Virus record (IMG/VR): IMGVR_UViG_3300044844_001006
Location: 1-62,215 of that record
DNA from: a virus
Taxonomy: Duplodnaviria; Caudoviricetes
Length of the DNA stretch: 62,215 bases
Reading direction: 5' to 3' (one strand)
Shown here one piece after another: positions 7,553-38,617 of the stretch. Numbering within the stretch: the first letter of the stretch is position 1; each line of letters opens with the position of its first letter. Below the pieces are notes generated by a model. The model was not told the DNA's origin, did not search any database, and worked only from the letters and a program-made list of their open reading frames with translations. The position numbers and the translations under genes are program-made.

Positions 7553-8182
7553 ATGGCATTTCGCCGCTTTGAGCTAACGCTTGAGGGCACACGCCCGCTC
7601 ATTTGCAGTAACCCCTGCACAGTTGATCCACTAGGCCCCCACGCCGAAGCGATCAAGTATTTCACCGGCCTCAAAAAGAACCGCAATGAACACGCCCTGA
7701 GGCGGCTGCATTGGTTGTTCTCCGGCTACTGGGGAACCGAAGGCACATTCACCTACGGGCCCAGCTTGGATGGTGATTCCAAGTTTAGTGGCTTTGCTGA
7801 GCCATTCCTGCCTGCTCAGAACCTGCAGCGTTGCATCCGCGATGGTGCCACGGCGTGGAAGCTGGGCAAGGACACCAAGCGGGCAATCGTTGTCGAGGGT
7901 GATGCACCGCTCGCTTACGACGGCCCCACCGATGCCGAGCTGATGTACGACGACCCGCGCTTTGCCTCAATCGCTCCCACAGGAAGGGGCACCATGGCAG
8001 TGCGGGTAAGGCTGCCCCAGTGGAGCGCTACCTACCGGCTCCTGGTGAATGACGAGATCATTGATCCCACCACGCTGGCAAAGATCCTAGATCGTGCTGG
8101 CATTGCCGAAGGCCTCGGCACCTGGCGCCCCATGCACGGTCGCTTTCAGGTAGTACAGCTCGAAGAGATTGAGGTGGCCTGA
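7553..8182 (+). CDS. RAMP/Cas7-like protein A (209 aa)
   Basis: N-terminal strand FELTLEGTRPLI, central FLPAQNLQRCIRDGA and C-terminal glycine-rich loop GIAEGLGTWRPMHGRFQV match RAMP-superfamily motif order. ATG 7553 follows an AAGAGG Shine-Dalgarno-like site. Confidence 0.72.
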   Translation: MAFRRFELTLEGTRPLICSNPCTVDPLGPHAEAIKYFTGLKKNRNEHALRRLHWLFSGYWGTEGTFTYGPSLDGDSKFSGFAEPFLPAQNLQRCIRDGATAWKLGKDTKRAIVVEGDAPLAYDGPTDAELMYDDPRFASIAPTGRGTMAVRVRLPQWSATYRLLVNDEIIDPTTLAKILDRAGIAEGLGTWRPMHGRFQVVQLEEIEVA

Positions 8183-8697
8183 TGAATGACCCCAAGATTG
8201 CCTCAATCGACGCTTACCACCTTTACAAGGGCCAGACCATTTCGGCCGATGTTGTGTGGGAGCACTTCGCAAATCGGCGACCCGACACCGTGGCCAGTTG
8301 GGTCATGGAGCACGGGGACGAGGCGCTGGCTAGGGCTGCTCGAATGCCTCAGGTTCTGCTTCAGGTTCGTGGCTGGCTTGACCGTGATCGCAGCAAAGCG
8401 GAGCTTCCGCCGCTGGTGATGAACACGGCAGGTGGCGGCATCAACGTGCTCACCGATGACAAGGCCTCAACCTACCTGAACGATCAGGCGTTCCAAGGGT
8501 TGCGCCGCCATCAGCGGGCATCCACTCGGCTTGTTGCCGCCGTAGATGAATCCAAGCTGACCGGTGCCGCACGTCGAGAGCATCAGAACCGGATCAACGT
8601 GCATAGCTTCATTGCTGCATCCGCTCAGGGCGCCCAGCGCCAGCTCAGGCTCCTGAGGCAGAACGGGAAGAAGGCACCGAAGCTGGAGGGGGGCTGA
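8182..8697 (+). CDS. Hypothetical protein, accessory gene of locus A
   Basis: 171 aa, TGATG-coupled to the RAMP-like gene and enclosed by the arrays. Confidence 0.8.
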   Translation: MNDPKIASIDAYHLYKGQTISADVVWEHFANRRPDTVASWVMEHGDEALARAARMPQVLLQVRGWLDRDRSKAELPPLVMNTAGGGINVLTDDKASTYLNDQAFQGLRRHQRASTRLVAAVDESKLTGAARREHQNRINVHSFIAASAQGAQRQLRLLRQNGKKAPKLEGG

Positions 8698-8855
8698 TGT
8701 GGGATCCAGCTGATTTGATCTTGCGACTTCTTGGCGGGGAGTCCCTTAGCCGCAGGCAAAAGGCGTGCATTCGGCAGCACTTGCAGCGTGTTGTCGGCCG
8801 TTTTTCACCCAGCGAATCCGCAGCAGCGGAAGCGCTGGGCCTGGCGGACATCTAA
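8697..8855 (+). CDS. Small hypothetical protein (52 aa, MWDPADLILRLLGGE...)
   Basis: TGATG-coupled to the previous gene and hand translated. Confidence 0.5.
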   Translation: MWDPADLILRLLGGESLSRRQKACIRQHLQRVVGRFSPSESAAAEALGLADI

Positions 8856-8887
8856 TGACCTGGGCATCCGCAAGGTGTAAGCCCTAG

Positions 8888-9222
8888 AACTGCGCCGCTC
8901 GCTACGTCGCCTTTCACCGCCGCCCCGCTCTACGCGCCGCACCGCACAGGGGGTCTCATGCGAGGCCCCACACCTCACCGCTAAGCCCCCTGGCTCTCCG
9001 GTGGGCTGACGCCTACCACGACGCGACACCACCCAGCGCCGCTCGACGCAACGCAACGCGCCGCACCGCACAGGGGGCCCAGTAATGGGCCTCACACCTC
9101 ACCGCTGAGCCATTGGTTCTCCGGTGGGCTGATGCCTACCACTGCTCCCTGCGCCGCGTTGCAAAACAGCGCTCCGCTTCGCATCGCACCGCACCGCACA
9201 GGGGCCCCTTTTTGGGGCCCAC
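8888..9222 (+). ncRNA. Array A-right: three units of CNC/YGC-NN pentamer tracts with the same hairpin scaffold
   Basis: Tracts at 8888-8947, 9017-9071 and 9140-9199 all end CGCAC CGCAC AGGGG plus a hairpin. The linker CACACCTCACCGCTRAGCC...CTCCGGTGGGCTGAYGCCTACCAC is repeated. Confidence 0.82.
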
Positions 9223-9254
9223 CCCAATCATTCACAGACACCCCCGAACACACC

Positions 9255-9566
9255 ATGAAAACCTTCTCAGTTACATTCAGCCTTACTCTTGATGTTACCT
9301 GCGCAGATCATTTAGATACTGATTGGGTAGCAAAGCAATTCGCCTACAAAAGTGATAGGTTTTCTACCCTTTGTATTGCAGGCGATCCTGAGGGCGAGAT
9401 TGCAATACAGGCTGCATCATCCGGCATAGAGAGTATTCGAAGGTATGATAGCCCAAAGGTATCGGCGACTCCCAAATCCGAGGCTCCCGCATTTCCTGCC
9501 CGTACCGGAAACCGCATTACTGACATGCTTTCTAATCCAGCCATTAGAAAGATGATTGGGTACTAG
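9255..9566 (+). CDS. Hypothetical protein (MKTFSVTFSLTLDV...)
   Basis: ATG after a C/A-rich leader. AT-richer than the genome average. Confidence 0.65.
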   Translation: MKTFSVTFSLTLDVTCADHLDTDWVAKQFAYKSDRFSTLCIAGDPEGEIAIQAASSGIESIRRYDSPKVSATPKSEAPAFPARTGNRITDMLSNPAIRKMIGY

Positions 9567-9625
9567 TAGCCTCTCCCAGTCCACCCAATCCCCATCCCCT
9601 ACTTACCATTATTGAGGATTTAGCT

Positions 9626-9988
9626 TTGGCTCACTACTGTGCTCCAGGTTTTCAGTTTGATGGAAAAGGATTTAGCCCAACGAATACACCGCCAAGCGTC
9701 AAGGCTGTGTGTGAAGGGTTGTTTGCACTTGGCTCGGGCGTCACTTTGGCAGGAGAAAAGCGTCTGGCTTTTCTTGCTGCATTGCATCAAGCCATACAAG
9801 AAAAACACATTGATCTTTCAGATCCTAACCCTGTCGCTGGCATTGAATGGGAAACCTTAGTCCCTGGTGCTGAATGGGAAGCCTTAGTCGACACGGGCGA
9901 AGGAACAATCAAGGTCACAGTAGAATGGCGGGTATCTATTGCCCCGCTACCTGAGGCGTCTGATGCGCTGGGTCTGCTCCCCAGTTGA
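9626..9988 (+). CDS. Hypothetical protein
   Basis: 120-aa ORF, TTG start preceded by GAGG. Confidence 0.5.
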   Translation: MAHYCAPGFQFDGKGFSPTNTPPSVKAVCEGLFALGSGVTLAGEKRLAFLAALHQAIQEKHIDLSDPNPVAGIEWETLVPGAEWEALVDTGEGTIKVTVEWRVSIAPLPEASDALGLLPS

Positions 9989-10021
9989 CCCGGAAACCTG
10001 CCGCAACACTGCCAGCCCGCC

Positions 10022-10255
10022 ATGGAAGCCCCAGTCATGGAAGCCCGCTCCTGCCCACGCTGCGGCGCCCGATGGCTAGGCGAGCAGCTTTACTGGGCCA
10101 CCGGCAAGAAGGCCTCAGAGCTTGATCTGGCGGGCCTCGTCTGCAACATGGTCAACGATCCGGTCTGCATCAACCCACTTAAAGGCCATGAAGGTGGCGA
10201 CACCTGGGCCAAGCGCATGGAGCGGGTCAGTCAGCCGCTTAGTGCTGAGGCATAA
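10022..10255 (+). CDS. Small Cys-containing hypothetical protein
   Basis: CPRCGARW...LYWATGK...DLAGLVCN. Preceded by a GGAAACCT motif. Confidence 0.7.
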   Translation: MEAPVMEARSCPRCGARWLGEQLYWATGKKASELDLAGLVCNMVNDPVCINPLKGHEGGDTWAKRMERVSQPLSAEA

Positions 10256-10261
10256 AAGGCA

Positions 10262-10290
10262 ATAAAAAGCCCCGGCAGTACCGGGGCCAT
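10262..10290. terminator. Intrinsic terminator between convergent genes
   Basis: AAAAAGCCCCGGCAGTACCGGGGC hairpin with an A-tract (U-tract on the minus strand). Confidence 0.65.
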
Positions 10291-10325
10291 CACCTCAAAC
10301 ACCGGAATTTCCGTTGTTTGCTTGG

Positions 10326-10598
10326 CTACCACTTCACCCTGTTTGCCCAGTAAGCGGCACTCATCGGGCCCTTTGCGATGTTGTCAGCATGGCGGGCCTT
10401 GAAGCTCGCACGGCGGGCTTTCTGCGCATCGGTGCGAGGGTTCTTCCCGGCACCACTCACCCCCTGCTGACCGAACCGGATCAGCCGCACCTTCTCGCCC
10501 TCCTTTGCTAACACCGCATGGCTCTTGGTGGCGTGCTGGGGGGTGCGCTTGGGCTTGTTATAGCCCTCAAACGTCTCCCCCCGAACAGTAATCGCCAT
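10326..10598 (-). CDS. Small basic phage protein
   Basis: GYNKPKRTP..HATKSHAVLAKEG..VRLIRFGQQG...SAAYWANRVKW, a motif pattern familiar from aquatic phages. Confidence 0.8.
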   Translation of the reverse strand: MAITVRGETFEGYNKPKRTPQHATKSHAVLAKEGEKVRLIRFGQQGVSGAGKNPRTDAQKARRASFKARHADNIAKGPMSAAYWANRVKW

Positions 10599-10600
10599 GA

Positions 10601-11434
10601 TCAGAGCAGATCGAGGCCGACCTTGCCGTAACCGGCCAGGCTCACCTGGAACTTGATCACCGTGCCAGCAGTCTGCTCAGGCTGGTAGCTCTCAAAGAAG
10701 CCATAGCCGTACTCCACCTGCTTCCCGTTGTTCGGGCCGATGACGGCGTACTCAACCATCAGCTTCTCGCTCACGTTGAACTCTTCACAGATCCGCATGG
10801 CACGCCACGCAGGGTCGGCGAAGTTCATCGCCCCGCTGATGCTCCAGGTCTTGTCCCTGGCGGTAGGAATCGGGGTGTTGTAGCTGCCCGCCTCGTCGTC
10901 GTAGGTGGTGACCGATTCCTTGGTGGTGCTGTTGCTGGGCTGGATATTGGTCAGACCCAGCAGGCGGAACGGGGGGTCGGTGCCGTCGAGCAGGAGTGAG
11001 GGGGCCACCACACCAGCAGATACGGAAGCAGTGGTGATCGCCGAGCCGGTCAGGGCATAGGTCAGGGTGTGCGGCGATGTGGTTGTAACCGCCGTCACCA
11101 CGAACGAACCGTTGATGGTGGCGAACGGAGCAGGAAGATCCTTCACCACGATCCGCTTGCCCACCGTGATGCCATGGGCATCAGCAAAGGTCAGGGTTGC
11201 GGTGGTGGTGGTACTGACCGCATTGGTAACCGCCTTGGTGCCGACACCGAATGCAAAGGTATCGCCGGTTCCAGCCGTGATGATCTGGGCGGTGGAGCTT
11301 TGCAGGGTGGTGTTGTCGATGAACTTGCCGGTGCCAAGCCCGCCGAGGTTGACGCGGGTAAGGTCAACCGCTGAAGCCTTGAGAGGGGTGAAGAAAAACT
11401 TGAACCCGTAGGCCTGTTCCCACACTTGGGGCAT
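10601..11434 (-). CDS. Major tail tube protein with an inserted beta domain
   Basis: ESVTTYDDEAG...KTWSISG...GYGFFESY...IKFQVSLAGYG fits a tail-tube pattern. Neighbours the tail chaperone. Confidence 0.75.
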   Translation of the reverse strand: MPQVWEQAYGFKFFFTPLKASAVDLTRVNLGGLGTGKFIDNTTLQSSTAQIITAGTGDTFAFGVGTKAVTNAVSTTTTATLTFADAHGITVGKRIVVKDLPAPFATINGSFVVTAVTTTSPHTLTYALTGSAITTASVSAGVVAPSLLLDGTDPPFRLLGLTNIQPSNSTTKESVTTYDDEAGSYNTPIPTARDKTWSISGAMNFADPAWRAMRICEEFNVSEKLMVEYAVIGPNNGKQVEYGYGFFESYQPEQTAGTVIKFQVSLAGYGKVGLDLL

Positions 11435-11521
11435 GATCCTGCCGGCGCTGCCGGTGCGTTACCTCGCAGGTTCCCGCCATGGCTTAAGACGCCTCAGCGG
11501 CTTAGGTGGGAAAGCTCAGGC

Positions 11522-11785
11522 ATGGCTTCTTACCCTCGCGGCGTTTCTCACTGCCCCCATAACGCACGGCGCCCATATCAGGCTCGCGTGTGGTGGGCTG
11601 GAAGGCGGTGGAGCCTGGGCTATTTCACGTCAATTCAGGCAGCAGCGCAGGCGGTGGAGCAGTGCTACCGGGAGATAGAACGATGGGCAGCCATGAGTCT
11701 GCCGCCGCCCATGCTGGCGCTGCAGCATCGGGAGCGGGTGGGACGTGCAGGGTCACCAGCCGGTGCGGATCATTCGCCAACCTGA
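11522..11785 (+). CDS. AP2-like DNA-binding protein
   Basis: YPRGVS...YQARVWWAGRRWSLGYFTSIQAAAQA matches the AP2/ERF domain pattern. Confidence 0.7.
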   Translation: MASYPRGVSHCPHNARRPYQARVWWAGRRWSLGYFTSIQAAAQAVEQCYREIERWAAMSLPPPMLALQHRERVGRAGSPAGADHSPT

Positions 11786-12323
11786 AGACGCGATCTTGCC
11801 CGGCTGCGGTGTCCTCCGCTAGCAGGAGCCCCCGCCAGCCGTCCTGATGTTCTAACGGGGCGAGTAGCAGGGCATCGTCTGCCAGCAGGGCAAGCAGCGG
11901 AGGCGGTGGCGTCCCCTCCCCGGCGGTGGCCAGAGCGTCGTAGAAGGCCATGGCGAACCCTGGCACCTGCCTCGCCTCGCACAGGGCCAGCATCGCCGCA
12001 CCGGCAGCAGCAGGGGGCCCCTCGGCTGCGTCCTGATTCTTGGGCGGCAGGAACCAGCAGAACTCCTCCATCGTGAACGGCTCGCGGCGCTTCTCGGTGT
12101 CCCGGTGAGCGCTGGCATACCAGGCGTGGAAGTTGGCGATCGGCCGCTCTGCCGCGTGCAGCCGTTCCCTCAGGAGGCGGGTGCCTTGGTCAAGCGCTTC
12201 CCAGATGGTGACTTCCGGGCACCAGGCGAAGTGCTCGCTGGTGAAGGCGTGGTGACGGGGCCAGAGGTCGCAGAGCTGCCAGAAGATTGCGCCCCAGTCG
12301 GTTGGGGCAGGTTTGGCTTTCCC
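11625..12323 (-). CDS. Tail assembly chaperone, -1 frameshift extension (lambda gpT-like part)
   Basis: The -1 frame is open from GGGAAAG (12317-12323) through TDWGAIFWQLCDLWP... into the 11625-12071 ORF. Confidence 0.7.
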   Translation of the reverse strand, partial: GKAKPAPTDWGAIFWQLCDLWPRHHAFTSEHFAWCPEVTIWEALDQGTRLLRERLHAAERPIANFHAWYASAHRDTEKRREPFTMEEFCWFLPPKNQDAAEGPPAAAGAAMLALCEARQVPGFAMAFYDALATAGEGTPPPPLLALLADDALLLAPLEHQDGWRGLLLAEDTAAGQDRVFRLANDPHRLVTLHVPPAPDAAAPAWAAADSWLPIVLSPGSTAPPPALLPELT

Positions 12324-12877
12324 AGGCTGTCGGCCATCAGTTGCAGGGTGGCCTCGGGATCAGCCGGTGCAGCGCCGCCGCGTTGCTCGCGCAGCATGAA
12401 GCTGTAGATGGCGTTGCGCAGGCCCTCGGTGAGGTTGCGGGTGTCGTCGTCGGTCCAGGCGGCGCAGGAAGGATCCACCTTGCCCAGCCGGTAGACGATC
12501 GCGGCGGTGACCAGCCGGGTGACTTGGGCCTCGTTCTGAGCTGACAAGCGGTTGTCAATGTCGCGGATCAGGCGGTGCTCCCGCTGCCGGATAGCGTCCT
12601 CCAGGGGCTCCAGCACCACCGGTATGCCAATGTGCTTTGCCATCAGGCGGGCCGCCACAAGGTTCGCCGTGGCCTCTGGTAGGTCGTCTGCCTCGCGGAT
12701 GATGCTTGCTAGGCGGTGGGTCTGTTCGTTCACCGTGCTCTGGTAGTCGATCTCATCGAGCAGGATGCGCTCCCCCACCAACAGGGCATTGAACACCGGG
12801 AACTCCAGGATGCCGGTGGTCTCATCCCCCACCTGCTCGACCTTGACTTCCGGGACGGTGACAAAGGGAAGCGGCAC
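12170..12877 (-). CDS. Tail assembly chaperone (lambda gpG-like)
   Basis: 235 aa with a Gly-Lys slippery site CTG GGA AAG near the C terminus, followed by a low-complexity tail. Confidence 0.72.
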   Translation of the reverse strand: MPLPFVTVPEVKVEQVGDETTGILEFPVFNALLVGERILLDEIDYQSTVNEQTHRLASIIREADDLPEATANLVAARLMAKHIGIPVVLEPLEDAIRQREHRLIRDIDNRLSAQNEAQVTRLVTAAIVYRLGKVDPSCAAWTDDDTRNLTEGLRNAIYSFMLREQRGGAAPADPEATLQLMADSLGKPNLPQPTGAQSSGSSATSGPVTTPSPASTSPGARKSPSGKRLTKAPAS

Positions 12878-13033
12878 GGTGCTGCGGTTGTGTTTTCTCA
12901 GCTTGCCGTTGTGGCTTAGGGAACCGCAATGGCTTATGATGTGGGGGCTGGGGGTTGCGCTGGCGTGGGCGAGCGTCTGACGCTACGACCGCTGCTCTTC
13001 CCCCGGCACCCATTCACCACCGACCGACCGACC

Positions 13034-13543
13034 ATGACCGACTTCCGCGCCGAACTGGATAAGACAAGAGGAGCCGAGGCGAGCGTTGAGCAAGTAGCTC
13101 AGATCGTCTACGAAAATGCCATGCTTGCAACTGCACCCGATCACGCCAAGCCGCATTGGCCAAGCTGGGCTGACCTTCCCAATTCAGATGCTCGCATCCA
13201 CGCGCTGAACACGGCTGAGATTATCCTCACCCGCTGGGGCCGCCCTGCAGCACCCGCGCCGAAGCCCATCCCGGTGAGTGAGCGGCTGCCGGAGGATGCC
13301 GACTGCCTGGTTATCCCGCCACTCGGGACAAGCACTTTCCCTCTCCGCTACTGCTGGCAGGCCAGTGAGATCATGCACTGTGGCCAAGCGCTACTGATCT
13401 GGGATTGGAAGCTGGTGCCGCACACGACAGATAAGCACTGGCCTTTCACGTACTGGCTGCCAGCGTCAACTCGATTCCTGCCGACGACGGTAGATCCTGC
13501 CAAAACCAACTCAGTAGCCGATCCCAACGAGGCTGAGGCATGA
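13034..13543 (+). CDS. Hypothetical protein with a DUF551-like module
   Basis: PIPVSERLP...TYWLP motifs. ATG after an ACC-rich leader. Confidence 0.65.
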   Translation: MTDFRAELDKTRGAEASVEQVAQIVYENAMLATAPDHAKPHWPSWADLPNSDARIHALNTAEIILTRWGRPAAPAPKPIPVSERLPEDADCLVIPPLGTSTFPLRYCWQASEIMHCGQALLIWDWKLVPHTTDKHWPFTYWLPASTRFLPTTVDPAKTNSVADPNEAEA

Positions 13544-14067: not shown

Positions 14068-14116
14068 GACCCGCCACCGCCACCTGACTCACACCACCAC
14101 CGACACCAAGACACCA

Positions 14117-15000: not shown

Positions 15001-15003
15001 GGC

Positions 15004-15965: not shown

Positions 15966-16023
15966 GGCGCCGCACGATCTAGCGCAGGTTTCCAGGAAAC
16001 CTCAGGCAGTGACCGGAAACCCC

Positions 16024-16449: not shown

Positions 16450-16452
16450 GTG

Positions 16453-17598
16453 TTACTCGGTGAAGACCGGGAATGAACCAACGAACCCCAAGCGGCTGTG
16501 CAGGAACCTCATGCCCTGCTGCGGTCGCTCGGGCCTATAGCCCTGGCGGTGGCCATAGGGGGCGCAACCGGGAAGGCTGCCGTTACCGGTGGCCCTGCCG
16601 AAGCTAAGAGTATGAAAATGGCCGTGGAATGTGTTATCAGCTGGGATACTCTGATCCAGGTTCTTTACGTGCTTGTCCACGTTCCACAGCGGGCCAGCAG
16701 CACCGCCGTTGTACTTCACCGAATCACCGTGGAAGAACCTAATCCGCTTGTCGTAAACATCTAGGTAAAGGCAGTCGGCATCAGCGATCTGCCACACCAG
16801 GCGCGGTTGGTCTCTGTAGTGCCTCCTGAGGTTGTGATACATCAAATGAGCAAAACTGTTCTCAGTGGCGTTGCTCTGCTGCTTCTTAGTGGTCCGGTCA
16901 TGGTTGCCCACGTTGCAGGGCACCATGATCCGCTCCAGATCGGAATGGGCGAGCAGGTAGTCAAAGCCCCGCACTAGGGCCAACTGACACCGCACGATCT
17001 GCTGAGTAGTGGTCAGGGTTTGGTTCTGTACGGCGTCGTTGTGCAGCTCCCCTTCAATCATGTCCCCACCCAGCCAGACCACCCCTTCGCGGATGGTCAT
17101 GGTGTTGCGCTGGCCGTTGATGATCTTTAGGGCATTGCGGAACACCGCATCGAGCCGGTCGTCAAAGATGTCCGGGTTGAACTCGTTAAGATTGTTCACC
17201 GCTGATGGCTTGACCACCATTCCGCAGTGAATATCACTGATCATCAGGATCGGTGCCGCCTCCTCCCTTTCGGGATCTGCCGGTGGCTCGATGGTCCCTT
17301 GATCGAAAATGTCCCTGATCTCCAGGGCCGTGGTCAGGGCATCCTGCACCGTCTCCAGTTTAGCCAAGGCCCGCTCTGCCGATGCTTTGGCGTCCCTCAC
17401 CTCAGCCCTAAGCCTGCGAGCATCAAGCTGGAGGGCTAGCAGCTCTTCAGATGTGTCCGATCGCTTGCCATTCGGGCACATGCCCGGCTTACAAAAGGGG
17501 CGGCGGGTTCCGGCCTCGTCGTGCCATTCGATGGCGCTCTCTTCAATCCATTCCCGGCAGGAGCTGCTGCGGCGGCATTGGAATGTACGCTCAGCCAT
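16453..17598 (-). CDS. Calcineurin-like metallophosphoesterase with N-terminal Cys cluster and coiled coil
   Basis: SDIH, GGDMIEG, GNHD, FHGD and GHFH motifs in the canonical order. Confidence 0.85.
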   Translation of the reverse strand: MAERTFQCRRSSSCREWIEESAIEWHDEAGTRRPFCKPGMCPNGKRSDTSEELLALQLDARRLRAEVRDAKASAERALAKLETVQDALTTALEIRDIFDQGTIEPPADPEREEAAPILMISDIHCGMVVKPSAVNNLNEFNPDIFDDRLDAVFRNALKIINGQRNTMTIREGVVWLGGDMIEGELHNDAVQNQTLTTTQQIVRCQLALVRGFDYLLAHSDLERIMVPCNVGNHDRTTKKQQSNATENSFAHLMYHNLRRHYRDQPRLVWQIADADCLYLDVYDKRIRFFHGDSVKYNGGAAGPLWNVDKHVKNLDQSIPADNTFHGHFHTLSFGRATGNGSLPGCAPYGHRQGYRPERPQQGMRFLHSRLGFVGSFPVFTE

Positions 17599-17601
17599 GG
17601 C

Positions 17602-17790
17602 TCAGGCCAGCCTCTGCAGCCAGACCCGAGCACCCACGCCAATGGACCGCTCCAACATGCTCACGACCTTGTGAGCGGTGCGTTGGGGCAGGTTCAGGGC
17701 AACATCACGCAGTACCTGCCGGGTGGCCTCCTCATCCCTGGCGCCAACGGTGGCGTGGAGGGTCAGGAACGCGCGTAGGTCGGGTGGCAT
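17602..17790 (-). CDS. Small hypothetical protein
   Basis: MPPDLRAFL..., preceded by a GGCAAGCT motif. Confidence 0.55.
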   Translation of the reverse strand: MPPDLRAFLTLHATVGARDEEATRQVLRDVALNLPQRTAHKVVSMLERSIGVGARVWLQRLA

Positions 17791-17927
17791 GGCGCGGCGT
17801 TGCGTTTCCTTAGCTTGCCGTGGTGGCTTAGGAAAGTGCAATGGCTTATGATGGGCAAGCCGGAGGGTTCCCTGTTCTGCGCAGGGACCGATCTACCTCC
17901 GGCACCCCCTTCACCACAAGAGAAACC

Positions 17928-18176
17928 GTGACCAAGCTCCTGATCGCCTCAGTGCTAGCCCTGACCTTGACTGGCTGCGTGAGCCCCGACCACGCCCAGC
18001 AGGTGCTAGTTGATGCTGGCTACTCCAACGTGCGAACAGGCGGCTATTCGTGGCTTGGCTGTGGCAAGAGTGACATTTATGCCACTAATTTTGAGGCAGT
18101 AGGGCCAACGGGCAGGCCGGTTAAAGGAACTGTTTGCAGCGGGTTTTCCAAGGGTGCCACAATACGCTTCCACTGA
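17928..18176 (+). CDS. Putative lipoprotein
   Basis: Signal peptide with lipobox LTLTGC. Mature part ends GRPVKGTVCSGFSKGATIRF. Confidence 0.75.
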   Translation: MTKLLIASVLALTLTGCVSPDHAQQVLVDAGYSNVRTGGYSWLGCGKSDIYATNFEAVGPTGRPVKGTVCSGFSKGATIRFH

Positions 18177-21803: not shown

Positions 21804-21835
21804 GGGGCCTCTGCTGTTACGGCTTAGCTTTCCGC

Positions 21836-26428: not shown

Positions 26429-27447
26429 GCGGCCACCCCGGCAAACAGGTCGGGCTGGACTGCCTTCAGAGATTGCGTCCCGACGCGGTGCCAGTGATAG
26501 CAGCGCTCAATGCCGATGAACTCCCGGCCCAAGGCAAGACAGGCTTGGCCCGTTGCCCCGCTACCAGCAAACGAGTCAAGCACCACGGCGCCGGGCTTGG
26601 TGCTGCTGCTGATGATGTGCCGCAGCAGGGCCTGGGGCTTCTCGCATGGGTGCTTCCCTGGCCGTGGCTGCACGGTGCGGAAGGTCCAAACATCGGTGAA
26701 CGGATCAAAGCGGGTGACGTTGAACGGGCGGCGGAGATCCTCGTAGTTGCGGCGGAGATCCTCGTAGTCGCGGCGGAGATCCTCGTAGTCGCGGCGGAGA
26801 TACTCGTGCCCTGGGCCATTGTTGAACAAGTGCCGCAGCTTGGCGTAGGCGTCTTCGGTGGGCAGCGCCCATTGGCTGGCCCCGAAATAATGGCCAGCCA
26901 TGCCCGACGTGCCCAAGCACTCGTCAACCTGCCGGTTTGTGATGCCTGCCCTGTCGCGCTCCTGAAGCAAGTACTGGCGCAACGGCTCAAACACGCCAGC
27001 GCGAAGCTCTGCGCATTGATCAGCCCAACCTGACCCGTGGAGGGCTGAGCCATCCGCCCCGAACTGCTCGGCAAAGATCACCGCTTCCCACGGCGACATG
27101 TAAGACCGCAGTGCCTCCTTTTCTGCCTTTTCATGCCATCCCTGGGCCTTGGTCCACCGGATGTTGTTCAACACCTGGAACCGCTGCCCCAGCATCACCT
27201 CAACCCGTGCCGCCATCTGCGGGGAAGCAAAGCAATAGAGCGACCCGTTGGGCTTGAGAACCCGCTGCCACTGCTCGGCCACCTGATCTAGCCAAGCAAG
27301 AAAAGCGGCCGGGTCGTCCCATTGGCGATCCCAGTCCTCGTCCTTGACGCGGTAGTACGGCGGATCGGTCACCACCGCATCCACGCTGCAATCCGGCATG
27401 GTGCGCAGCACGTCGAGGCAGTCGCCAAGGTGGAGCTGAGCGTTCAT
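26425..27447 (-). CDS. DNA methyltransferase (N6A/N4C, beta class)
   Basis: TDPPY, HPCEKP and VLDSFAGSG motifs. Confidence 0.93.
   Translation of the reverse strand: MNAQLHLGDCLDVLRTMPDCSVDAVVTDPPYYRVKDEDWDRQWDDPAAFLAWLDQVAEQWQRVLKPNGSLYCFASPQMAARVEVMLGQRFQVLNNIRWTKAQGWHEKAEKEALRSYMSPWEAVIFAEQFGADGSALHGSGWADQCAELRAGVFEPLRQYLLQERDRAGITNRQVDECLGTSGMAGHYFGASQWALPTEDAYAKLRHLFNNGPGHEYLRRDYEDLRRDYEDLRRNYEDLRRPFNVTRFDPFTDVWTFRTVQPRPGKHPCEKPQALLRHIISSSTKPGAVVLDSFAGSGATGQACLALGREFIGIERCYHWHRVGTQSLKAVQPDLFAGVAA
26729..26800. repeat. 21-bp in-frame tandem repeat (RRDYEDL x3) in the methyltransferase
   Basis: GCGGCGGAGATCCTCGTAGT(C/T) repeated about 3.5 times. Confidence 0.9.
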
Positions 27448-31909: not shown

Positions 31910-32072
31910 GGCTTTACCTCCAGGGGTAAAATGCGCACTTCCATCCCTTGCGCTAAAAGCTCCTTGGTGCGTTTTGACGCTTCGGAGAACCCCCCAATGC
32001 GTTCAGTGCCGACCAGTGCGCGGCGACCAGGGCCAGGAGTGCGTTTGATGTACCAGCTAATCTGATAGGTCG

Positions 32073-32411: not shown

Positions 32412-32636
32412 CGGACCATCGGTGCTACGTGGCGTTGGTGCAGCAGTTGCTGATTGGCGTCCTGTAAGGCTAAAGCTTGACCGAGGATGACAGCTCCTAG
32501 GAACAGCAGGAGAGCCAGGATAGCGGGCCCTACTCGGCTATCGGTGGTTTCACTGCGGGGCGTTGCTTGGAGTAGCGACGCTGCGTGATCCAGAGGAGAA
32601 GTAGAGCGGCGGCGATGAATCGGGGGAAGGGACGGC

Positions 32637-32843
32637 TCAAGAGAGTTGCCCGCAGAGGCTGATGGCTTCACAGCGAAGGACAACGGCGCCGGGGTGGCGG
32701 GCTTCAAAGGCTTGCTTAGCGTCGTGAGCGCTCCAGCCGTCAGGCGTGATCCATTCGGTGTGCAGGGAGTCGCTGGACTGGAAGATGCTGGGGAGGATGG
32801 AGGTTGCACGAGACGGGTTGTGGTAAGTGAGTGAGAAGACCAT
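32637..32843 (-). CDS. Small hypothetical protein
   Basis: 68-aa ORF in the operon. Confidence 0.45.
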   Translation of the reverse strand: MVFSLTYHNPSRATSILPSIFQSSDSLHTEWITPDGWSAHDAKQAFEARHPGAVVLRCEAISLCGQLS

Positions 32844-32846
32844 GGA

Positions 32847-33110
32847 TCAAACCAGCTCCTTACCGGTACAGGAGGGGAAGTCCGGCAGGTAGCACGCAGG
32901 GGGAAGGGGTGGTAGCGATGCGTTGGTGAGGAGGGAGCTGATGGTGTGAAGCCGCCTGCGCCAGTTCGTGAGAGCTAAGGGATCCACCGGCTTGCCGTCC
33001 TCGCGGCTGTTGTCCTCAAGAGCGCGGGCGGCGGATTCGGCATCGGCCAGCAGTTGATCCAGCGCGGTGGCTACCGGCTGCTGGCGGGGGGTGTGGTTAA
33101 TCGTGGGCAT
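32847..33110 (-). CDS. Hypothetical protein
   Basis: 87 aa, ATG after a C-rich leader. Confidence 0.55.
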   Translation of the reverse strand: MPTINHTPRQQPVATALDQLLADAESAARALEDNSREDGKPVDPLALTNWRRRLHTISSLLTNASLPPLPPACYLPDFPSCTGKELV

Positions 33111-33146
33111 TGGTAGCGGGGCGGTGTGGTTTGGGAAGCGCAGCGG

Positions 33147-33386
33147 TCAGGCGTACGCGAAAGCATCTTCCTCAGCCGGCAGGAGCACAGTGAGGCGGTA
33201 AGGCGCCTGGGTCTCGTCGTAGCTAGCCAGGGTGGTGGCTAGGTCTTCGGCGTCGGTGTAGTCGTTGTTGTCGTCGTTTTCGACGTAGAACCAAGGCGCC
33301 AGATCGTCGGATTGCCGCTGCTCGACAATGGAGCAGAGAGGGTGGTCGCTGATGGTCAGCAGGGCATCGGCAAGGAGGGTGGACAT
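33147..33386 (-). CDS. Acidic hypothetical protein
   Basis: MSTLLADALL..., downstream of an ACGGCTTATGAT promoter-like motif. Confidence 0.55.
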   Translation of the reverse strand: MSTLLADALLTISDHPLCSIVEQRQSDDLAPWFYVENDDNNDYTDAEDLATTLASYDETQAPYRLTVLLPAEEDAFAYA

Positions 33387-33537
33387 GGGCGGTCGGGGGG
33401 TGGTGGTGCCGGGTTGTCCCCGGTCCACAAATCATAAGCCGTAAATGCGCTTTCGTAAAGCCCTACCGCCGTTGCGTTTCAGAAACAGTAACAATGGGCG
33501 CCAAAAGGAAAGCCCCGGCGGTTGCCAGGGCCAGGGA

Positions 33538-34155
33538 TCAGGCGGTGAGGGCCACCTCGTATCGGGGGCTAGCCCCGAGCCTGCGGGTGCGCGATCGGTG
33601 CCGCGTCAGGCCATCAAGCACCGTGGTGGCTACCGCCTGCTCCCAGATCGCGAGGGCTTCCTCGTCCGATGCAGCGTGGATCACGATGCGGGCGGCGTTG
33701 AGGCACCCTGCGCGGTTGGCGGTGGGCTGGCGGTGGTTGGTGGTGAGCGGTGGGGCGGGTGGAGCGGGCTGGAACTGCTCCAGGAACCAGCCATCCATCC
33801 AAACGGCAAAGGCGGGGCTGATCCAGCGGGCGAGGTCCACGGCGAGGCGGGGATGGATCCAGGTGCCCCGCAGGTGGTTGGGGCCGGTGCCGATGGAGGT
33901 CACCAACAGGTCGGCCGGAATTCCGGCAGACCCCGAAAGGGCCTGCAGGTACTCGGTTGTGCGCTCGTTGGTTTGGTAGTGGTTCCAGCGGCGACCACCG
34001 GCCTTGCACATCGCCGTAGCGTTCACGTAGCCATCCATCTGGCGCCGTTGGATCGGGTGGCCGTTCCACTCGCGGGCCTCGATCTGGGACTGTGCGGGTT
34101 GCGCGGGGGGCAGGGCGAGGGGTTCGCCGCAGCATTCGCAGGTTGCGCGTTGCAT
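33538..34155 (-). CDS. KilA-N domain protein (antirepressor-like)
   Basis: DGYVNATAMCKAGGRRW...GTWIHPRLAVDLARWISPAFAVWMD. Confidence 0.9.
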   Translation of the reverse strand: MQRATCECCGEPLALPPAQPAQSQIEAREWNGHPIQRRQMDGYVNATAMCKAGGRRWNHYQTNERTTEYLQALSGSAGIPADLLVTSIGTGPNHLRGTWIHPRLAVDLARWISPAFAVWMDGWFLEQFQPAPPAPPLTTNHRQPTANRAGCLNAARIVIHAASDEEALAIWEQAVATTVLDGLTRHRSRTRRLGASPRYEVALTA

Positions 34156-34158
34156 GGC

Positions 34159-34347
34159 TCAGGCCTCCACAAAGGTGAAGGTGGCAGCCAGGTAAGCCGG
34201 GGATGTGGCGCACAGCTCCGCGATAGCGGCGCGGGCCTCGGCTTCGGTTTCAAAGTCGTTGGGGTAGCCAAGCTCCCACAGGGCACGCTCAACATCGGAC
34301 GCGAAAGGGGACCCGCCCGGGGAGGCGGGCATCATGGCCGTTTTCAT
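34159..34347 (-). CDS. Small hypothetical protein
   Basis: ORF directly upstream of the KilA-N gene. Confidence 0.45.
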   Translation of the reverse strand: MKTAMMPASPGGSPFASDVERALWELGYPNDFETEAEARAAIAELCATSPAYLAATFTFVEA

Positions 34348-34552
34348 GGGTAGTTCAGGTGTCGAAAGCATTCGGCACTGCTGCCGAACACCCCGAGCAT
34401 AGCCCAAAGGGAAAGGGCCAGTCATTGGCCAGCCCTCTCCGGTTGAAACCGGGCCTCCAGTACGGTTTCAGGAAGGTGTCGACAGGCACCCTCCACCGCG
34501 TCCGCCCTTACGGGTAGGACCGACCCGGCAGCACCAGGCTACCGGCTGCCGC

Positions 34553-35092
34553 TCATGCGCTCACCCTCTCGCGTGGCAGCTCCAGCCCCAGCCGTTCCAG
34601 GGCCTCCACCACGTCAGTCAGCGAGGTCACGCCGAACTTGCGGATGTCCAGCAGGTCGGTAGGGGTGAGCTGCATCAGGTGGCCCACGGTGTTGATCCGT
34701 GCCCGCTTGAGCAGGTTGTATGCGCGGGCCGTGCGGAGGTCTAGCTGCTCGATCGGCACCGAATCATCGAATGTGGCGGAGATCCCCTGGGGATGACCAG
34801 ATGGCAACGAAACCAGTTGCGCTGCCGTGGTGGCCTTATGCAGCGACCCCTGCAGCTCCGCCAGGCTGGCCTCAAGGCGATCCAGCCGGGTGAGCCATAT
34901 CGATCCAGGCGGGGTGAAGGCTGCGGGCTCGGGCTCTGATTCGGGCTTGCCGGTCCATATCCGCTCCTGCGTGTTGAATCTGGCGCCGCAGGCATGACAC
35001 ACACAGCGGCGCCGCTTCGCTTGCTGCTTGGGCTGGTAGCGGGATTCGATGACCCGGTGACCAGTGGCCTTGCACTCGGGACAGGGGATCAT
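34553..35092 (-). CDS. NrdR-type Zn ribbon fused to an RNA polymerase alpha C-terminal domain
   Basis: CPEC...RVIESR...RRRCVCHACGARFNTQE, plus PIEQLDL..RAYNLLKRARINTVGHL...LLDIRKFGVTSL. Confidence 0.82.
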   Translation of the reverse strand: MIPCPECKATGHRVIESRYQPKQQAKRRRCVCHACGARFNTQERIWTGKPESEPEPAAFTPPGSIWLTRLDRLEASLAELQGSLHKATTAAQLVSLPSGHPQGISATFDDSVPIEQLDLRTARAYNLLKRARINTVGHLMQLTPTDLLDIRKFGVTSLTDVVEALERLGLELPRERVSA

Positions 35093-35201
35093 GGCCGGCC
35101 TCCCCTTATCCACAGGCTGTGAAACCAGATACCGCAGGCGAAGGCTTGCAGCAGCATCAGCTCCAGCACGATGGCCTTGAGGGCCTCGGGTGTGTAGAAG
35201 A

Positions 35202-36704
35202 TCATGCTGCGTTGGCCCTCATGTAGCGCGCCATCCGCGAGGTGCTGCCGTTTGGCGCGGGTTCAGCAGCCTTGCGGCGGGGCTTCTTCTTGGCCAGCTG
35301 CTCCGGCAGCACCTGCCCCTTGATCCGTGCATAGCGGGCATTCACGGCAGCCCACACCTCCTCATCCAGGAACTCGAAATGCACCGTGCCTTTTTTGTAG
35401 GCGCGGAAGCGGAAGAATCCCCACTCGTACCACTCGCCTGGCCAGAAGATCCCGTCACCGGAAGGCTTCTCAGGTTGGGCCACCTCGTCGTAACTGCGAC
35501 CAGTGATAAAGCAGAGCGCTTTGATTAGGTCGCGGATCTCGTCGCTCTGGCTGCCGTAGGTCTTGAGGTTGACGCCACGGTTGTTGTAGGACAGCTCCGC
35601 CATGTAGGCGCGGATGAAGCGGCGGTTCAGCATGTAGCCGCTGTTCGTGACCCAGCCCTCCACGCCCCAGCGGTTCTCCTTTGTGTGCTTGGTGAGGCTG
35701 TCGATCGCCTGCTCTACGGCACGGTCTACCCGCTGCTCCTGCGTCCCCGCCACGATCTGGAGCATCCGGTAGATGTTCCGCTCGGTGAAGGGGATCTTGG
35801 ACTGCTCCTCCACAAAGGCGTTGATTTCCTTCTGCAGGTTGCTGGTCGCCATCTGCGCGGGCAGAAACGCGGCAAACACGTGCTTCCATGCCGCCTTCTG
35901 CAGGTCCTTGCGAAAGCGGTTGCGGGTGACCGGGGCCCCCTCGACCGTGACCTGCAGGCCAAGCTCCCCACCAAAGAACCCGTCGAGCACGCTGCGCAGG
36001 CGCACCCCGGCTTCTACCTGCTCGTCGAAGATGCGACAGGCCTCCACGTAGCGCTTCACAATGTCGCGGCTGCGGCGGTAAGGGATCAACCCCTCGCCTT
36101 GGGCCTCGATGTCGTCAGGCCCGAGGAAGAACCCATCGAACTCATCAGCGGTGCTTACACGTTGCCCCGGCACCGGCTTGCGAAGGCGCACCATGCCGAC
36201 ACTCACCCGCGTGGGGCGCTCGGCGGTAGTGAAGCATTCGCCTAGGCACTCGCTGCTGCCGTAAGCCTCCACCAGGGTAGCTAACTGCAACTGCAAGCGG
36301 CGGTAGCGGCCTTCGCAGGTGTTCCAGTTGCATAGGGCCACGATCTCGCAGCCGGGCGGGGCGATCTCCCAGGCGTGCAAGATGTGGGCCTCGTCCGCCG
36401 AGAAGGGCGGGTTCATCACGATCAGATCAATGTGCGACACATCGGCGGCTTGGACTTGCAGGAAGTCTTCATGCAGACAACCGCCAAGGTGATGGCCTGG
36501 AATGCCATTCACGATTGAACGCAGCTGCGGCTCTTTCTCGCACCACAGCACCTCAGCAGCGCCACGGTTGAGGCACTCGCGGATCAGGTTGCCACTACCG
36601 GCGCTGGGTTCGAGGATCGTCTTGCCCCGTAGGTCGAGGCAATCGAGCATGGTGGCCGCTACTTCGGGCGGGGTGGGGTAAAAGTCAGAAGAAAATAAAC
36701 TCAT
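35202..36704 (-). CDS. SAM-dependent DNA methyltransferase with a DUF4942-like C terminus
   Basis: DFYPTP, ILEPSAGSG and MNPPF motifs, with C-terminal FFRFRAYKKGTVHFEF. Confidence 0.85.
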   Translation of the reverse strand: MSLFSSDFYPTPPEVAATMLDCLDLRGKTILEPSAGSGNLIRECLNRGAAEVLWCEKEPQLRSIVNGIPGHHLGGCLHEDFLQVQAADVSHIDLIVMNPPFSADEAHILHAWEIAPPGCEIVALCNWNTCEGRYRRLQLQLATLVEAYGSSECLGECFTTAERPTRVSVGMVRLRKPVPGQRVSTADEFDGFFLGPDDIEAQGEGLIPYRRSRDIVKRYVEACRIFDEQVEAGVRLRSVLDGFFGGELGLQVTVEGAPVTRNRFRKDLQKAAWKHVFAAFLPAQMATSNLQKEINAFVEEQSKIPFTERNIYRMLQIVAGTQEQRVDRAVEQAIDSLTKHTKENRWGVEGWVTNSGYMLNRRFIRAYMAELSYNNRGVNLKTYGSQSDEIRDLIKALCFITGRSYDEVAQPEKPSGDGIFWPGEWYEWGFFRFRAYKKGTVHFEFLDEEVWAAVNARYARIKGQVLPEQLAKKKPRRKAAEPAPNGSTSRMARYMRANAA

Positions 36705-36707
36705 GGC

Positions 36708-37877
36708 TCAAAAAGGGGCGCAATGAAAGTCCCCTGGGAGAACCAGCGACCAATCAACCTCAACCGCCGGGTGCAGCGTTCCATCGGCAATGGCGCGGGC
36801 GGCGGTGCCGGGGTCCATGGTGGTGAGGGTCGTGGTAAGGGCAGCCACGAACGCATCCCGGCGCTGCTGCTTGGCCTCCTCAGCCCTAGCAGCCGCCTCC
36901 CGCAGTTCCGCCTCCATCTCAGCTTGCTGCTTGACGCGGGCCGCCTCCCTTGCGGCGGCTTCCTCAGCCCGGCGCTCCGCTTCTTCCTGCGCAAGGCGGG
37001 CCGCCTCCACCTGAGCCAGTGCCTGAGCTTCCCGGGCGGCAATCGCTTCCCGTTCCTTGTGTGCTTGCTCATCAGCAGCAAGACGCTGGCGCTCGGTTTC
37101 AGCTTTACGGGCCAGGCGATCGGCCTCCACCGCTTCCCGTTGAAGCTGCGCAATGCGATCGGCCTCTTCGCGGGCTGCCTTCTCGGCACGTAGAGCCTCC
37201 AGCTCTATGCGCTCCGCTTCCTGTGCAGCCAGGGTGTCGTGCAGGGTCTGCAGCCGCTCTAGTGCCTCAGCGCAGCGGTTGGCGCCAGCCTCGCTGAACT
37301 CTTCCAGCGTGGCGGGGTCAATCGTGGCTAACTCTGCCAAGCGGGCATCAGCGTCTAGGGAGGTTTCAATCCCTTCGGTGAGCGCAGCAATGCGATCCAG
37401 GACAGCCCGGTGCGCTTCGATGCGGGCCTCTTCCCGAGCCTCAATCGCCTTGATGGCCGTTTCGTGCGGCTCGATCAGGCCTTGAACGGCTGCTTCCAGC
37501 GTCTTGGCGGTTTCATCAACCGTCTTGCCGCGGTGGAGATGAACTGCCTTGGCGTCCTTCCGGGCTCTCTCAATCTTGCCCTTGAGCTGACGCAGCTCGT
37601 AAACCCAGGAGCGGGCCTGCTTGTTGTCCCACTTGTCGTCGTAGTCAAAGACCTTGCTGGGGGCCTCTCCTTCGGCGATAGCGATGTCACAGGCGATAGC
37701 TTCCCATCGGCTGATCGCCTGCGCTTCGGCTGCCGGAACAATGGCGGCTTGGGGGGCGGCAGTGGCCTCCGCAGCGGCTGGGGCCTCGGCGGGCAGCACC
37801 TCTGCGGTGACGGCTGGGGGTGCTGCGGTGGTGGCTTTGGCGGTTTTGGCTCTGGCCTTGGTGGTGGTGGCGGTCAT
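36708..37877 (-). CDS. Coiled-coil hypothetical protein
   Basis: About 389 aa, Ala/Glu/Arg-rich, with an LKGKIERARKDAKA...GKTVDETAK motif. Confidence 0.75.
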   Translation of the reverse strand: MTATTTKARAKTAKATTAAPPAVTAEVLPAEAPAAAEATAAPQAAIVPAAEAQAISRWEAIACDIAIAEGEAPSKVFDYDDKWDNKQARSWVYELRQLKGKIERARKDAKAVHLHRGKTVDETAKTLEAAVQGLIEPHETAIKAIEAREEARIEAHRAVLDRIAALTEGIETSLDADARLAELATIDPATLEEFSEAGANRCAEALERLQTLHDTLAAQEAERIELEALRAEKAAREEADRIAQLQREAVEADRLARKAETERQRLAADEQAHKEREAIAAREAQALAQVEAARLAQEEAERRAEEAAAREAARVKQQAEMEAELREAAARAEEAKQQRRDAFVAALTTTLTTMDPGTAARAIADGTLHPAVEVDWSLVLPGDFHCAPF

Positions 37878-37969
37878 GTGGTGGTGATCGTTTCGGAACG
37901 ACCTAGGTACGATACCATTTTGAAACCGCAACGGCTTAGGCCAGCGGCAATTCATCACGAAACACCACC

Positions 37970-38617
37970 ATGGCAGCCACCACCAAGACCAAAACCCAAG
38001 CCCCCGAGGAGGCCATCAGCATCAAGGCGCCGGATTTCCGGTTCCTGGAGATCAACATCCGAGGCACCAGCCCCCTCGTGGTCAACCGCTTCTCGGCGAA
38101 AGCCATCGAGATGATGCGGGCCACGCAGGAGGCAGGTAGCGCCGCTAAGTCCAAAAAGACGCGGGAGCCGAAAGATTTCGATGCCCTGTTTGAGAACGCC
38201 AAACACGTCTCAAACGACGGCTGGGAAGGGATCCATGCTGCCGCCTTCCGCAATGGCGCCATCAGTGCCTGCAGGGCTGTTGGCTACAAGATGACCCACG
38301 CAAAGCTGGCGTTTTGCGTGCTGGCCGATGGCTTCGACCGCGTAGACGGTGCCCCGCTGGTGCGCATTTCCGAGGGAGAGGCTGAGCAGTGGGTGGCCCC
38401 AACCCGGAACGCTACAGGTGTAGTCGATCTGCGCTGCCGTCCGATGTACCGGGAATGGGCTGCCGTGTTGCGGATCCGTTACGACGCGGGGATGCTCAGC
38501 TCCAGCGATGTGGTGAACCTGATCAGCCGCGTAGGGCTCCAGGTCGGCATCGGCGAGGGGCGACCCGATAGCAAAGCCAGTGCAGGACTTGGGTTTGGCC
38601 TTTTTGAGATCACCTGA
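37970..38617 (+). CDS. RAMP/Cas7-like protein B (215 aa)
   Basis: LEINIRGTSPLVV, GIHAAAFRNGAISA, DLRCRPMYREW and glycine-rich loop GLQVGIGEGRP...GLGFGLFEI. Same motif layout as 7553-8182. Confidence 0.75.
   Translation: MAATTKTKTQAPEEAISIKAPDFRFLEINIRGTSPLVVNRFSAKAIEMMRATQEAGSAAKSKKTREPKDFDALFENAKHVSNDGWEGIHAAAFRNGAISACRAVGYKMTHAKLAFCVLADGFDRVDGAPLVRISEGEAEQWVAPTRNATGVVDLRCRPMYREWAAVLRIRYDAGMLSSSDVVNLISRVGLQVGIGEGRPDSKASAGLGFGLFEIT

Follow-up and report, generated by a model that had tools for sequence, protein, structure and literature searches.

Two candidate VIPR systems with different repeat triplets in one phage genome

The IMG/VR record IMGVR_UViG_3300044844_001006, analyzed here in full as a single window of 62,215 bases, is a tailed-phage genome that very probably encodes two separate VIPR (Viral Interference Programmable Repeat) systems. 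System A lies beside an array of CGC-NN repeats and system B beside an array of GGY-NN repeats, each repeat being a fixed triplet followed by two variable bases. Since proteins A and B are both homologous to the Vipr protein of Escherichia phage phiSUSP1 (hereafter SUSP1), the structure of which has been solved, we assigned both loci to VIPR, and this assignment best explains the two loci as a whole. The phage is probably from freshwater, as its relatives are IMG/VR metagenome contigs.

According to the accessible text of the discovery preprint, a VIPR locus consists of a phage RAMP-like protein (Vipr), an accessory gene (vap), and vrRNAs in which a structured 3′ tail follows 9–16 YNNGG repeats; pairing with double-stranded DNA takes place through the NN bases and passes over one target base at each repeat, and the transcription of competing phages or satellites is repressed (10.64898/2026.04.26.720920). 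The Methods of the same paper also list NNNGG, YNNNG, and NNNNG repeats. The accessible part of the structural work describes, by cryo-electron microscopy, a SUSP1 filament with one protomer per repeat, in which the first triplet base (G1) is contacted by H17 and D177, the second (G2) by R138 and W178, and the third (Y3) lies in a pocket partly formed by R179 (10.64898/2026.04.26.720927). A further VIPR preprint deals with competition (10.64898/2026.10.15.759431), and a language-model preprint reports, in its accessible passages, 21 clusters of non-GGY VIPR-like arrays in which a triplet (GAC, CAC, WGT, and TGH are named) is repeated ~10 times beside a Vipr-like fold (10.64898/2026.10.21.760802). 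VIPR as a kind of system, non-GGY variants included, is thus already known from these 2026 preprints, and its basic biology is not new here; its mechanism has so far been worked out in enterobacterial and Pseudomonas phages with GGY systems.

Proteins A and B are distant homologs of SUSP1 Vipr

The genes for the two proteins are as follows:

7553..8182, + strand: vipr-A, encoding protein A (209 amino acids), placed by its sequence in a non-canonical, putatively CGC-reading clade
37970..38617, + strand: vipr-B, encoding protein B (215 amino acids), placed by its sequence in the putatively GGY-reading clade

A first-pass annotation of the window had described two 'repeat-RAMP' systems whose proteins are similar in length but share little literal identity, a picture that depended on the two proteins being homologous. 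BLASTP aligned A with B over 58 amino acids only (26% identity, E 1e-5), and B-type rows of a joint alignment were 18–26% identical to A. Nevertheless, the proteins are homologous. Both matched phrog_4652, a family of unknown function (2.7e-26 for A, 2.9e-16 for B), and a profile of 13 A-type sequences aligned with a profile of 88 B-type sequences at 95.1% probability (E 3.2e-08, 176 columns). A mixed A and B profile matched one solved structure, PDB 36pp 'SUSP1 Vipr protein' (E 2.4e-11, 191 of 201 positions); the entry 36pp_D was matched by A alone with an E value of 1.4e-11, by B alone with 0.034, and by the B-only profile of 88 sequences with 7.1e-07. Protein B also shares 52.6% identity with a Cyanophage Cy-LDV1 protein. 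Pfam held no family for protein A or protein B. The discovery paper, in its accessible text, calls Vipr a RAMP relative, so the earlier name was apt. The G-loop is readable in both sequences (G-x-G-T-W-R-P in A, G-I-G-E-G-R-P in B) and aligns with the G-loop of SUSP1.

Array A consists of hairpin-framed CGC-NN units on both sides of the genes

Array A can be divided into six putative vrRNA units, three upstream of vipr-A (7186–7552) and three downstream of the A operon (8886–9254):

7148..7185, + strand: candidate promoter region of the upstream array, containing ACGGCTTA (7160–7167)
7186..7311, + strand: unit U1, 10 CGC-NN repeats (7194–7243), a GC hairpin (7245–7261), and a second conserved hairpin
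7312..7437, + strand: unit U2, 10 repeats (7314–7363), then two hairpins
7438..7552, + strand: unit U3, 13 repeats (7438–7502) and one hairpin (7504–7524), lacking the second hairpin and abutting the vipr-A start
8886–9019, + strand: unit U4, 11 repeats, two hairpins
9020–9144, + strand: unit U5, 10 repeats, two hairpins
9145–9254, + strand: unit U6, 11 repeats, one hairpin (9201–9220)

Each unit holds 10–13 pentamers in strict register. Among the 65 pentamers the triplet is CGC in 39, TGC in six, and AGC in six, and G never occupies position 1 (0/65). CGC recurred at a lag of five nucleotides 10 times upstream and 12 times downstream of the genes, far above dinucleotide-preserving shuffles (means of 1.0 and 1.1, maxima of 5 and 4). 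GGY, by the same count, did not recur at all on the + strand, and its recurrence on the reverse complement was no higher than in shuffles. These results agree with the earlier description of array A as discrete CGC-NN units framed by hairpins, flanking the genes, and not GGY on either strand. A sliding scan of the whole window for 5-nucleotide periodicity flagged nine stretches, of which six are the arrays of locus A (7171–7271, 7421–7501, and 9001–9211) and locus B (38811–38941, 39031–39181, and 39281–39441).

The first triplet base of array A is better termed 'C, not G' than strictly fixed C. Over 446 pentamers from the window and its relatives, position 1 was C in 77%, T in 14%, A in 8%, and G in 2%; the share of G at the NN positions of array A is about 20–22%. 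The canonical GGY triplet is thus found in system B and not in system A. Since the accessible text of the VIPR papers permits 'a related consensus', a non-GGY triplet does not exclude A from the family; written in the notation of the discovery paper, the A repeat is C-NN-C-G, hence it falls under YNNNG.

In every unit of array A the repeat tract is followed by a GC-rich hairpin, and the second conserved hairpin is present only in the four non-terminal units. RNAalifold on 23 two-hairpin tails from the window and related loci returned 17 base pairs, 10 of them with compensatory changes, and G-U pairs at two tail positions are compatible only with a + strand transcript. Rfam gave no family at gathering scores anywhere in the window, and two chance-level rows at E values up to 10 in 7100–9300; the hairpin between units hence belongs to no ribozyme or RNA family known so far. 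When the upstream arrays were compared with those of six close relatives, identity was 75%, 90.5%, and 96.8% at the three triplet positions, 57% at the NN positions, and 87% in the tails, and the relatives differ in having two or three upstream units. Conserved triplets and tails together with a fast turnover of NN and a varying number of units are the pattern expected of guide arrays.

The stretch 7148..7185 is kept 5′ of the first repeat in the related loci L001, L005, and L008 by alignment. In our own reading of the sequence, its hexamers TTCCCA and TAGTAT, 18 nucleotides apart, may form the promoter of the upstream array.

Lastly, we noted a weak period-5 signal at 17751–17831, between the divergent genes 16453–17598 (– strand) and 17841–18176 (+ strand). 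On the – strand its first four pentamers are CGC/TGC-NN; there is no tail hairpin, and the stretch is probably not a vrRNA.

Array B is a staggered GGY array

38770..39500, + strand: putative vrRNA-B array, ~730 nucleotides with 105 GGY triplets, grouped in short in-register runs with backward slips of one base between them
40140..40161, + strand: terminator-like hairpin and T run that close the B operon

GGY recurred at a lag of five nucleotides 49 times in array B, compared to a shuffle mean of 5.6 and maximum of 14, and GGC makes up 88% of the in-register GGY pentamers. The first-pass annotation had this array as continuous GGY-NN downstream of the gene. Its triplet and its position stand; its continuity in a single register does not, as 30 of the 104 spacings between triplets are one base short (64 are in register and five are one base long). 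Most of the short steps consist of GGCA or GGCT with GG directly after, the usual junction being GGCA followed by GGC, often as GGCA then GGCAY. GCAGGC recurs along the array, mostly followed by A and Y-GG, and splits it into pieces of 9–110 nucleotides. In-register runs contain one to six GGY triplets and are up to eight pentamers long. Compared to relatives, array B shows a weak contrast between triplet and NN (G1 92%, G2 96%, Y3 83%, N 86%), and, unlike array A, it has no discrete structured tails.

The one-base backward slips fit the published 'staggered' arrays, the vrRNAs of which overlap by one nucleotide according to the legend of fig. S18 in the discovery paper (10.64898/2026.04.26.720920). 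Set beside that legend text, the runs of array B likewise overlap by one base (GGCAG followed by GCAY equals GGCAG plus GGCAY), and the published staggered type is its likely home. The same GGCAGGC junctions occur in Cy-LDV1 and in the Mycobacterium and Gordonia phage relatives of B.

It might be argued that periodic arrays such as these act as DNA, being iterons or curved DNA bound directly by the neighboring protein, and a consensus scan indeed found no sigma-70-like promoter at locus A or locus B. We regard this as very improbable: the compensatory changes and strand-specific G-U pairs in the A tails point to RNA, array B is part of an operon closed by a terminator-like hairpin, and the homologous SUSP1 arrays, in the accessible account, are transcribed and co-purify with Vipr (10.64898/2026.04.26.720920).

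The triplet follows the protein clade and one pocket residue

To map triplets onto the protein phylogeny, as the first-pass annotation had suggested, we collected from IMG/VR 27 A-type loci (48–98% identity) and at least 121 B-type loci, 80 of which were kept (50–97% identity); with eight named phages, the 107 IMG/VR loci give 115 related loci overall. Tandem 5-nucleotide repeats beside vipr, present in the window, were scored in the 107 related loci. CGC was the top lag-5 triplet in 21 of the 27 A-type loci (one tie). The exceptions were L015 (a three-way tie), L020 (CTC), L022, L024, and L026 (CCC first, CGC second), and L025, a truncated locus. GGC was the top triplet in 68 of the 80 B-type loci (one tie) and GGT in two more (L087 and L088); the remaining ten had weak or no arrays within the DNA examined.

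For 117 Vipr rows we then built a quick maximum-likelihood tree; 96 of the rows carried a triplet label (GGY 77, CGC 18, HTC 1) and 21 ambiguous ones were left unlabeled. The labels follow the clades, changing twice over the 96 labeled rows, which is the minimum for three states.

The 117 proteins (from the 80 B-type loci, window B, the eight named phages, and the CGC clade) were also aligned to SUSP1 for a comparison of pocket residues. At the positions of SUSP1 H17, R138, D177, W178, and R179, protein A has S, R, T, W, and R. The D177-equivalent, which is T190 in A and E in B, is T in 23 and A in four of the 27 scorable proteins of the CGC clade (L025 is truncated); all 89 proteins on the GGY side have D or E there. 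The R179-equivalent is R in all aligned proteins, and the R138-equivalent is R except for five K and four M among A-type rows; conservation of these two arginines in both A and B fits the unchanged positions 2 and 3 (G, C) of the A triplet. At the H17-equivalent, CGC-clade proteins have S, T, G, or D, and most B-type proteins have N. These alignments support a co-variation of the first triplet base with a single pocket residue, the D177-equivalent. The earlier proposal that triplet specificity co-evolved with the protein accordingly holds at the level of clades (T/A versus D/E at this residue, two label changes in 96 rows), and it lacks independent repeats, as all of this reflects essentially one event.

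Two loci in the A clade have a third triplet. L020 (3740–3830) and L021 (3660–3960 and 5170–5300), 76–77% identical to A, carry NTC/NN repeats with TC at triplet positions 2–3 and the same tail hairpins, and their R138-equivalent is still R.

Among the related loci, the GGC-NN tracts of Gordonia phage Trine (L108, 3060–3300) are separated by GGTTCGAxTCC elements that resemble a tRNA T-arm, and the tracts of LittleE (L111, 2230–2300, 2380–2430, 3700–3740, and 3860–3890) are split by elements of the same type. ARAGORN called one tRNA-like gene in Trine (L108, 3283–3351) and no tRNA in the window. The elements of these two phages suggest tRNA-like processing signals between vrRNAs; the discovery paper's main text makes no mention of tRNA (10.64898/2026.04.26.720920).

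The two systems may form an insulated pair

By homology with SUSP1, each Vipr would polymerize along its repeat RNA with one protomer per 5-nucleotide repeat. The filament would bury the fixed triplet and expose the two variable bases, and it would bind double-stranded DNA matching NN-x-NN-x and so prevent a competing mobile element from being transcribed. In this reading, system B is a canonical GGY/NN system, with its long staggered array placed in a vipr–array–vap operon. System A belongs to the SUSP1-like side of the family, with discrete putative vrRNAs of ~125 nucleotides flanking vipr and vap and with hairpins after each repeat tract; here, the change of G1 to C goes along with T190 in place of D177, the acidic G-loop residue to which G1 is hydrogen-bonded in SUSP1. 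By analogy, both arrays would be transcribed and loaded, each protein would prefer its own array, and mobile elements would be the targets.

We tentatively propose, with some reservation, that A and B are a naturally insulated pair, in which the G1-to-C1 change and the lost acidic contact (D177 to T190) would block cross-loading and so allow two independent guide sets. The pair is not unique to this phage. Three further IMG/VR contigs carry an A-type and a B-type locus together (L001 with L032, L019 with L044, and L027 with L043). Ten further related records carry a single Vipr each (five A-type only, five B-type only), and eight of these ten are rated at least 90% complete. Carriage of both systems is therefore recurrent without being the rule.

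Another possibility is that both loci are VIPR systems that are not orthogonal: position 1 would be relaxed in A (the 'YNNNG' class), A would load NGC-NN or GGY-NN and so have guides in common with system B, and the two systems would be redundant or additive. Position 1 is indeed the least conserved triplet position of A arrays, at 75% among relatives and with T and A as its main alternatives to C; YNNNG and NNNNG are listed as alternative consensus in the accessible Methods of the discovery paper, and the replacement of D177 by T could equally mean a lost reading as a new one. However, the near-exclusion of G from position 1 (0/65 in the window and 2% of 446, against ~20% at NN) looks like discrimination against G, not indifference. 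Moreover, B retains the acidic residue and the D177A substitution abolished SUSP1 function in the accessible account (10.64898/2026.04.26.720927), hence B is unlikely to accept CGC. For these reasons we consider the non-orthogonal alternative rather unlikely.

We also searched for targets under the 1-nucleotide skip rule, using 41 unique A-type guides against 883 kb with up to 15% mismatches and permuted guides as controls. The U5 guide gave a 17/20 codon-phased NN-x match in the B accessory gene (39776–39804, + strand), with 3 of 300 permutations as good, and the U2 guide gave a 17/20 codon-phased match in a tail-region gene of the related locus L001. As the pooled test showed neither an excess nor a preference for the 1-nucleotide skip (see below), we provisionally treated both matches as chance.

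That no target was found for any A guide, and that some units are degenerate (U4, for example, has six CGC in 11 repeats), would also be expected if system A were a decaying or domesticated VIPR remnant, with arrays now serving as structured RNA or as a protein sponge instead of DNA guides. This seems improbable to us. Protein A, its accessory gene (25/27 A-type loci), and the arrays (CGC on top in 21/27) are retained together, the key RNA-binding arginines are kept, and triplet positions 2 and 3 are conserved at 90–97% versus 57% for NN, as expected of live guides. The target search was, besides, of low power, being confined to 883 kb with mismatches and to exact matches elsewhere.

Several points weigh against the overall reading of the loci as two VIPR systems, each with its own array and triplet. 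The link between clade, triplet, and residue is essentially one evolutionary event on the tree and not repeated evolution, so the correlation is without replication. Only D177 tracks the triplet: H17, the second contact of G1, is poorly kept on the GGY side too, and it does not discriminate the clades, as it is mostly not H in B-type proteins either. The NTC/NN repeats of L020 and L021, with the same arginine, indicate that the logic of contact residues alone does not explain every change of triplet. The in-register runs of array B seem too short for useful guide specificity. The expression, processing, and unit boundaries of the arrays are predicted from the sequence. In addition, the pooled search with A guides yielded two hits, compared to 2.2 per permutation (none with a 0-nucleotide skip, three with a 2-nucleotide skip), and exact scans of IMG/VR with guides U5, U1, and U2 found no match; both searches had little power.

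If the insulated-pair proposal is true, the first triplet base would be a programmable 'address', such that swapping one or two pocket residues re-addresses a Vipr, and several orthogonal VIPR channels could operate in one cell. In this phage one can ask, in a natural setting, whether different triplets keep co-resident VIPR systems insulated from each other; the D177 position provides a concrete residue hypothesis for the reading of the first base, and the staggered array provides a second architecture in the same genome for comparison. CGC/NN repeats, dual carriage, orthogonality, and the D177 pocket change do not appear in the accessible text of the VIPR preprints, the supplementary figures of which may already show CGC/NN or these loci.

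Comparison with known systems

The closest described counterpart of system A is the SUSP1-type (type II) VIPR. Both have a protein of ~200 amino acids (26% identity, with near full-length homology), a small accessory gene directly after vipr, discrete vrRNAs (10–13 pentamers in A) on both sides of the genes with a structured 3′ part per tract, and the W-R pair of the G-loop together with the thumb arginine. Unlike SUSP1, system A has the triplet CGC instead of GGT, T in place of D177, and S in place of H17. Its tails are one or two plain hairpins, as opposed to the pseudoknot described for SUSP1 in the accessible text; its accessory protein has no detectable similarity to vap1; and it has three upstream units versus one. 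With 10–13 repeats followed by hairpins, array A has the form expected of VIPR repeat tracts (9–16 units and a structured 3′ part), whereas array B does not in that form.

System A also resembles the non-canonical arrays of the language-model preprint in having 5-nucleotide repeats, a non-GGY triplet, ~10 repeats, and a Vipr-like neighbor. In contrast to those arrays, its triplet CGC is not among the ones named, and pocket residues and two-system genomes are not discussed in the accessible passages.

More distantly, and as far as the accessible VIPR text goes, VIPR is similar to the backbone RAMPs (Cas7) of class 1 CRISPR systems in that a RAMP polymer forms on a guide RNA with bases flipped at a fixed period. 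It differs in its period (5 nucleotides with three bases hidden, versus 6 nucleotides with one flipped), and neither A nor B is accompanied by a CRISPR array or a cas gene.

Two other identities were considered for the proteins and set aside. A TRAP-like ring protein on triplet repeats was abandoned as an idea once the homology to Vipr was evident. A CRISPR-Cas RAMP (Cas5/Cas6/Cas7) was rejected: Pfam gave no Cas family for A or B, the neighbors are tail genes, a methyltransferase, and proteins of no known function, and a tandem-repeat scan of the window found no repeat-spacer (CRISPR) array.

The ACGGCTTA motif is not special to the two loci

37931..37938, + strand: copy of ACGGCTTA, 31 nucleotides upstream of the vipr-B start codon

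The first-pass annotation had noted ACGGCTTA just upstream of both loci and raised the possibility that they are co-regulated. The copies at 7160 and 37931 are indeed present. The window, however, contains six copies in total (besides these two, the + strand has copies at 21819 and 46132 and the – strand at 33435 and 45077), compared to ~1.5 expected from base composition, so the motif is not special to loci A and B. It is positioned differently relative to the two loci, the copy before vipr-B lying in a different context, and it occurs upstream of 7 of 27 A-type and 15 of 80 B-type loci. We therefore regard ACGGCTTA as a genome-wide motif of this phage group, which is weak evidence for joint regulation.

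We also noted that 7148–7167 (+ strand) and 45077–45096 (– strand) share a 20-nucleotide stretch that ends in ACGGCTTA, with a –10-like hexamer ~10–12 nucleotides later. The copies at 7160 and 45077 thus look like one promoter type, and the motif is a candidate phage promoter or operator.

Accessory and neighboring genes

8182..8697, + strand: accessory gene of system A (vap-like), 171 amino acids, no known family
8697..8855, + strand: small open reading frame, 52 amino acids, gene status uncertain, no family found
38617..38769, + strand: small hydrophobic open reading frame between vipr-B and array B, 50 amino acids, gene status uncertain
39557..40123, + strand: accessory gene of system B (vap-like), 188 amino acids, phrog_15946 (2.3e-20)
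3323–6394, – strand: tape-measure protein
10601–11434, – strand: tail protein
35202–36704: methyltransferase-like gene

The accessory genes of the two systems differ, as had been noted from the sequence. That of system A was found in 25 of 27 A-type loci by tblastn; neither Pfam nor PHROG holds a family for it, and BLAST detected no similarity to SUSP1 vap1. The accessory protein of system B is homologous to the products of vipr-adjacent genes in Cy-LDV1 (9e-29), UmaThurman (4e-17), Quico (4e-13), and ODay (9e-13), and its gene was found in 54 of 80 B-type loci. An Atlas search returned only viral hypothetical clusters for either accessory protein. The order of system B is vipr-B, array, vap-like gene, and terminator-like hairpin; the 50-amino-acid reading frame between vipr-B and the array had no match in B-type loci at E 1e-5.

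The cassette of system A, on the + strand, is embedded in a tail module on the – strand. It forms part of a + strand island (7100–10260) that also contains small open reading frames at 9255–9566, 9626–9988, and 10022–10255, the last with a match to phrog_484. The VIPR locus of Mycobacterium phage LittleE is similarly placed, and those of ODay and Medea1 also adjoin tail genes.

Elsewhere in the window, 26728–26807 holds a 21-nucleotide unit repeated 3.8 times at 96% identity within overlapping open reading frames, and 46661–46806 holds tandem repeats with periods of 20, 25, and 14 nucleotides that are rich in CCCC and GGGG blocks (beginning CCCCAAAAGGGGT).

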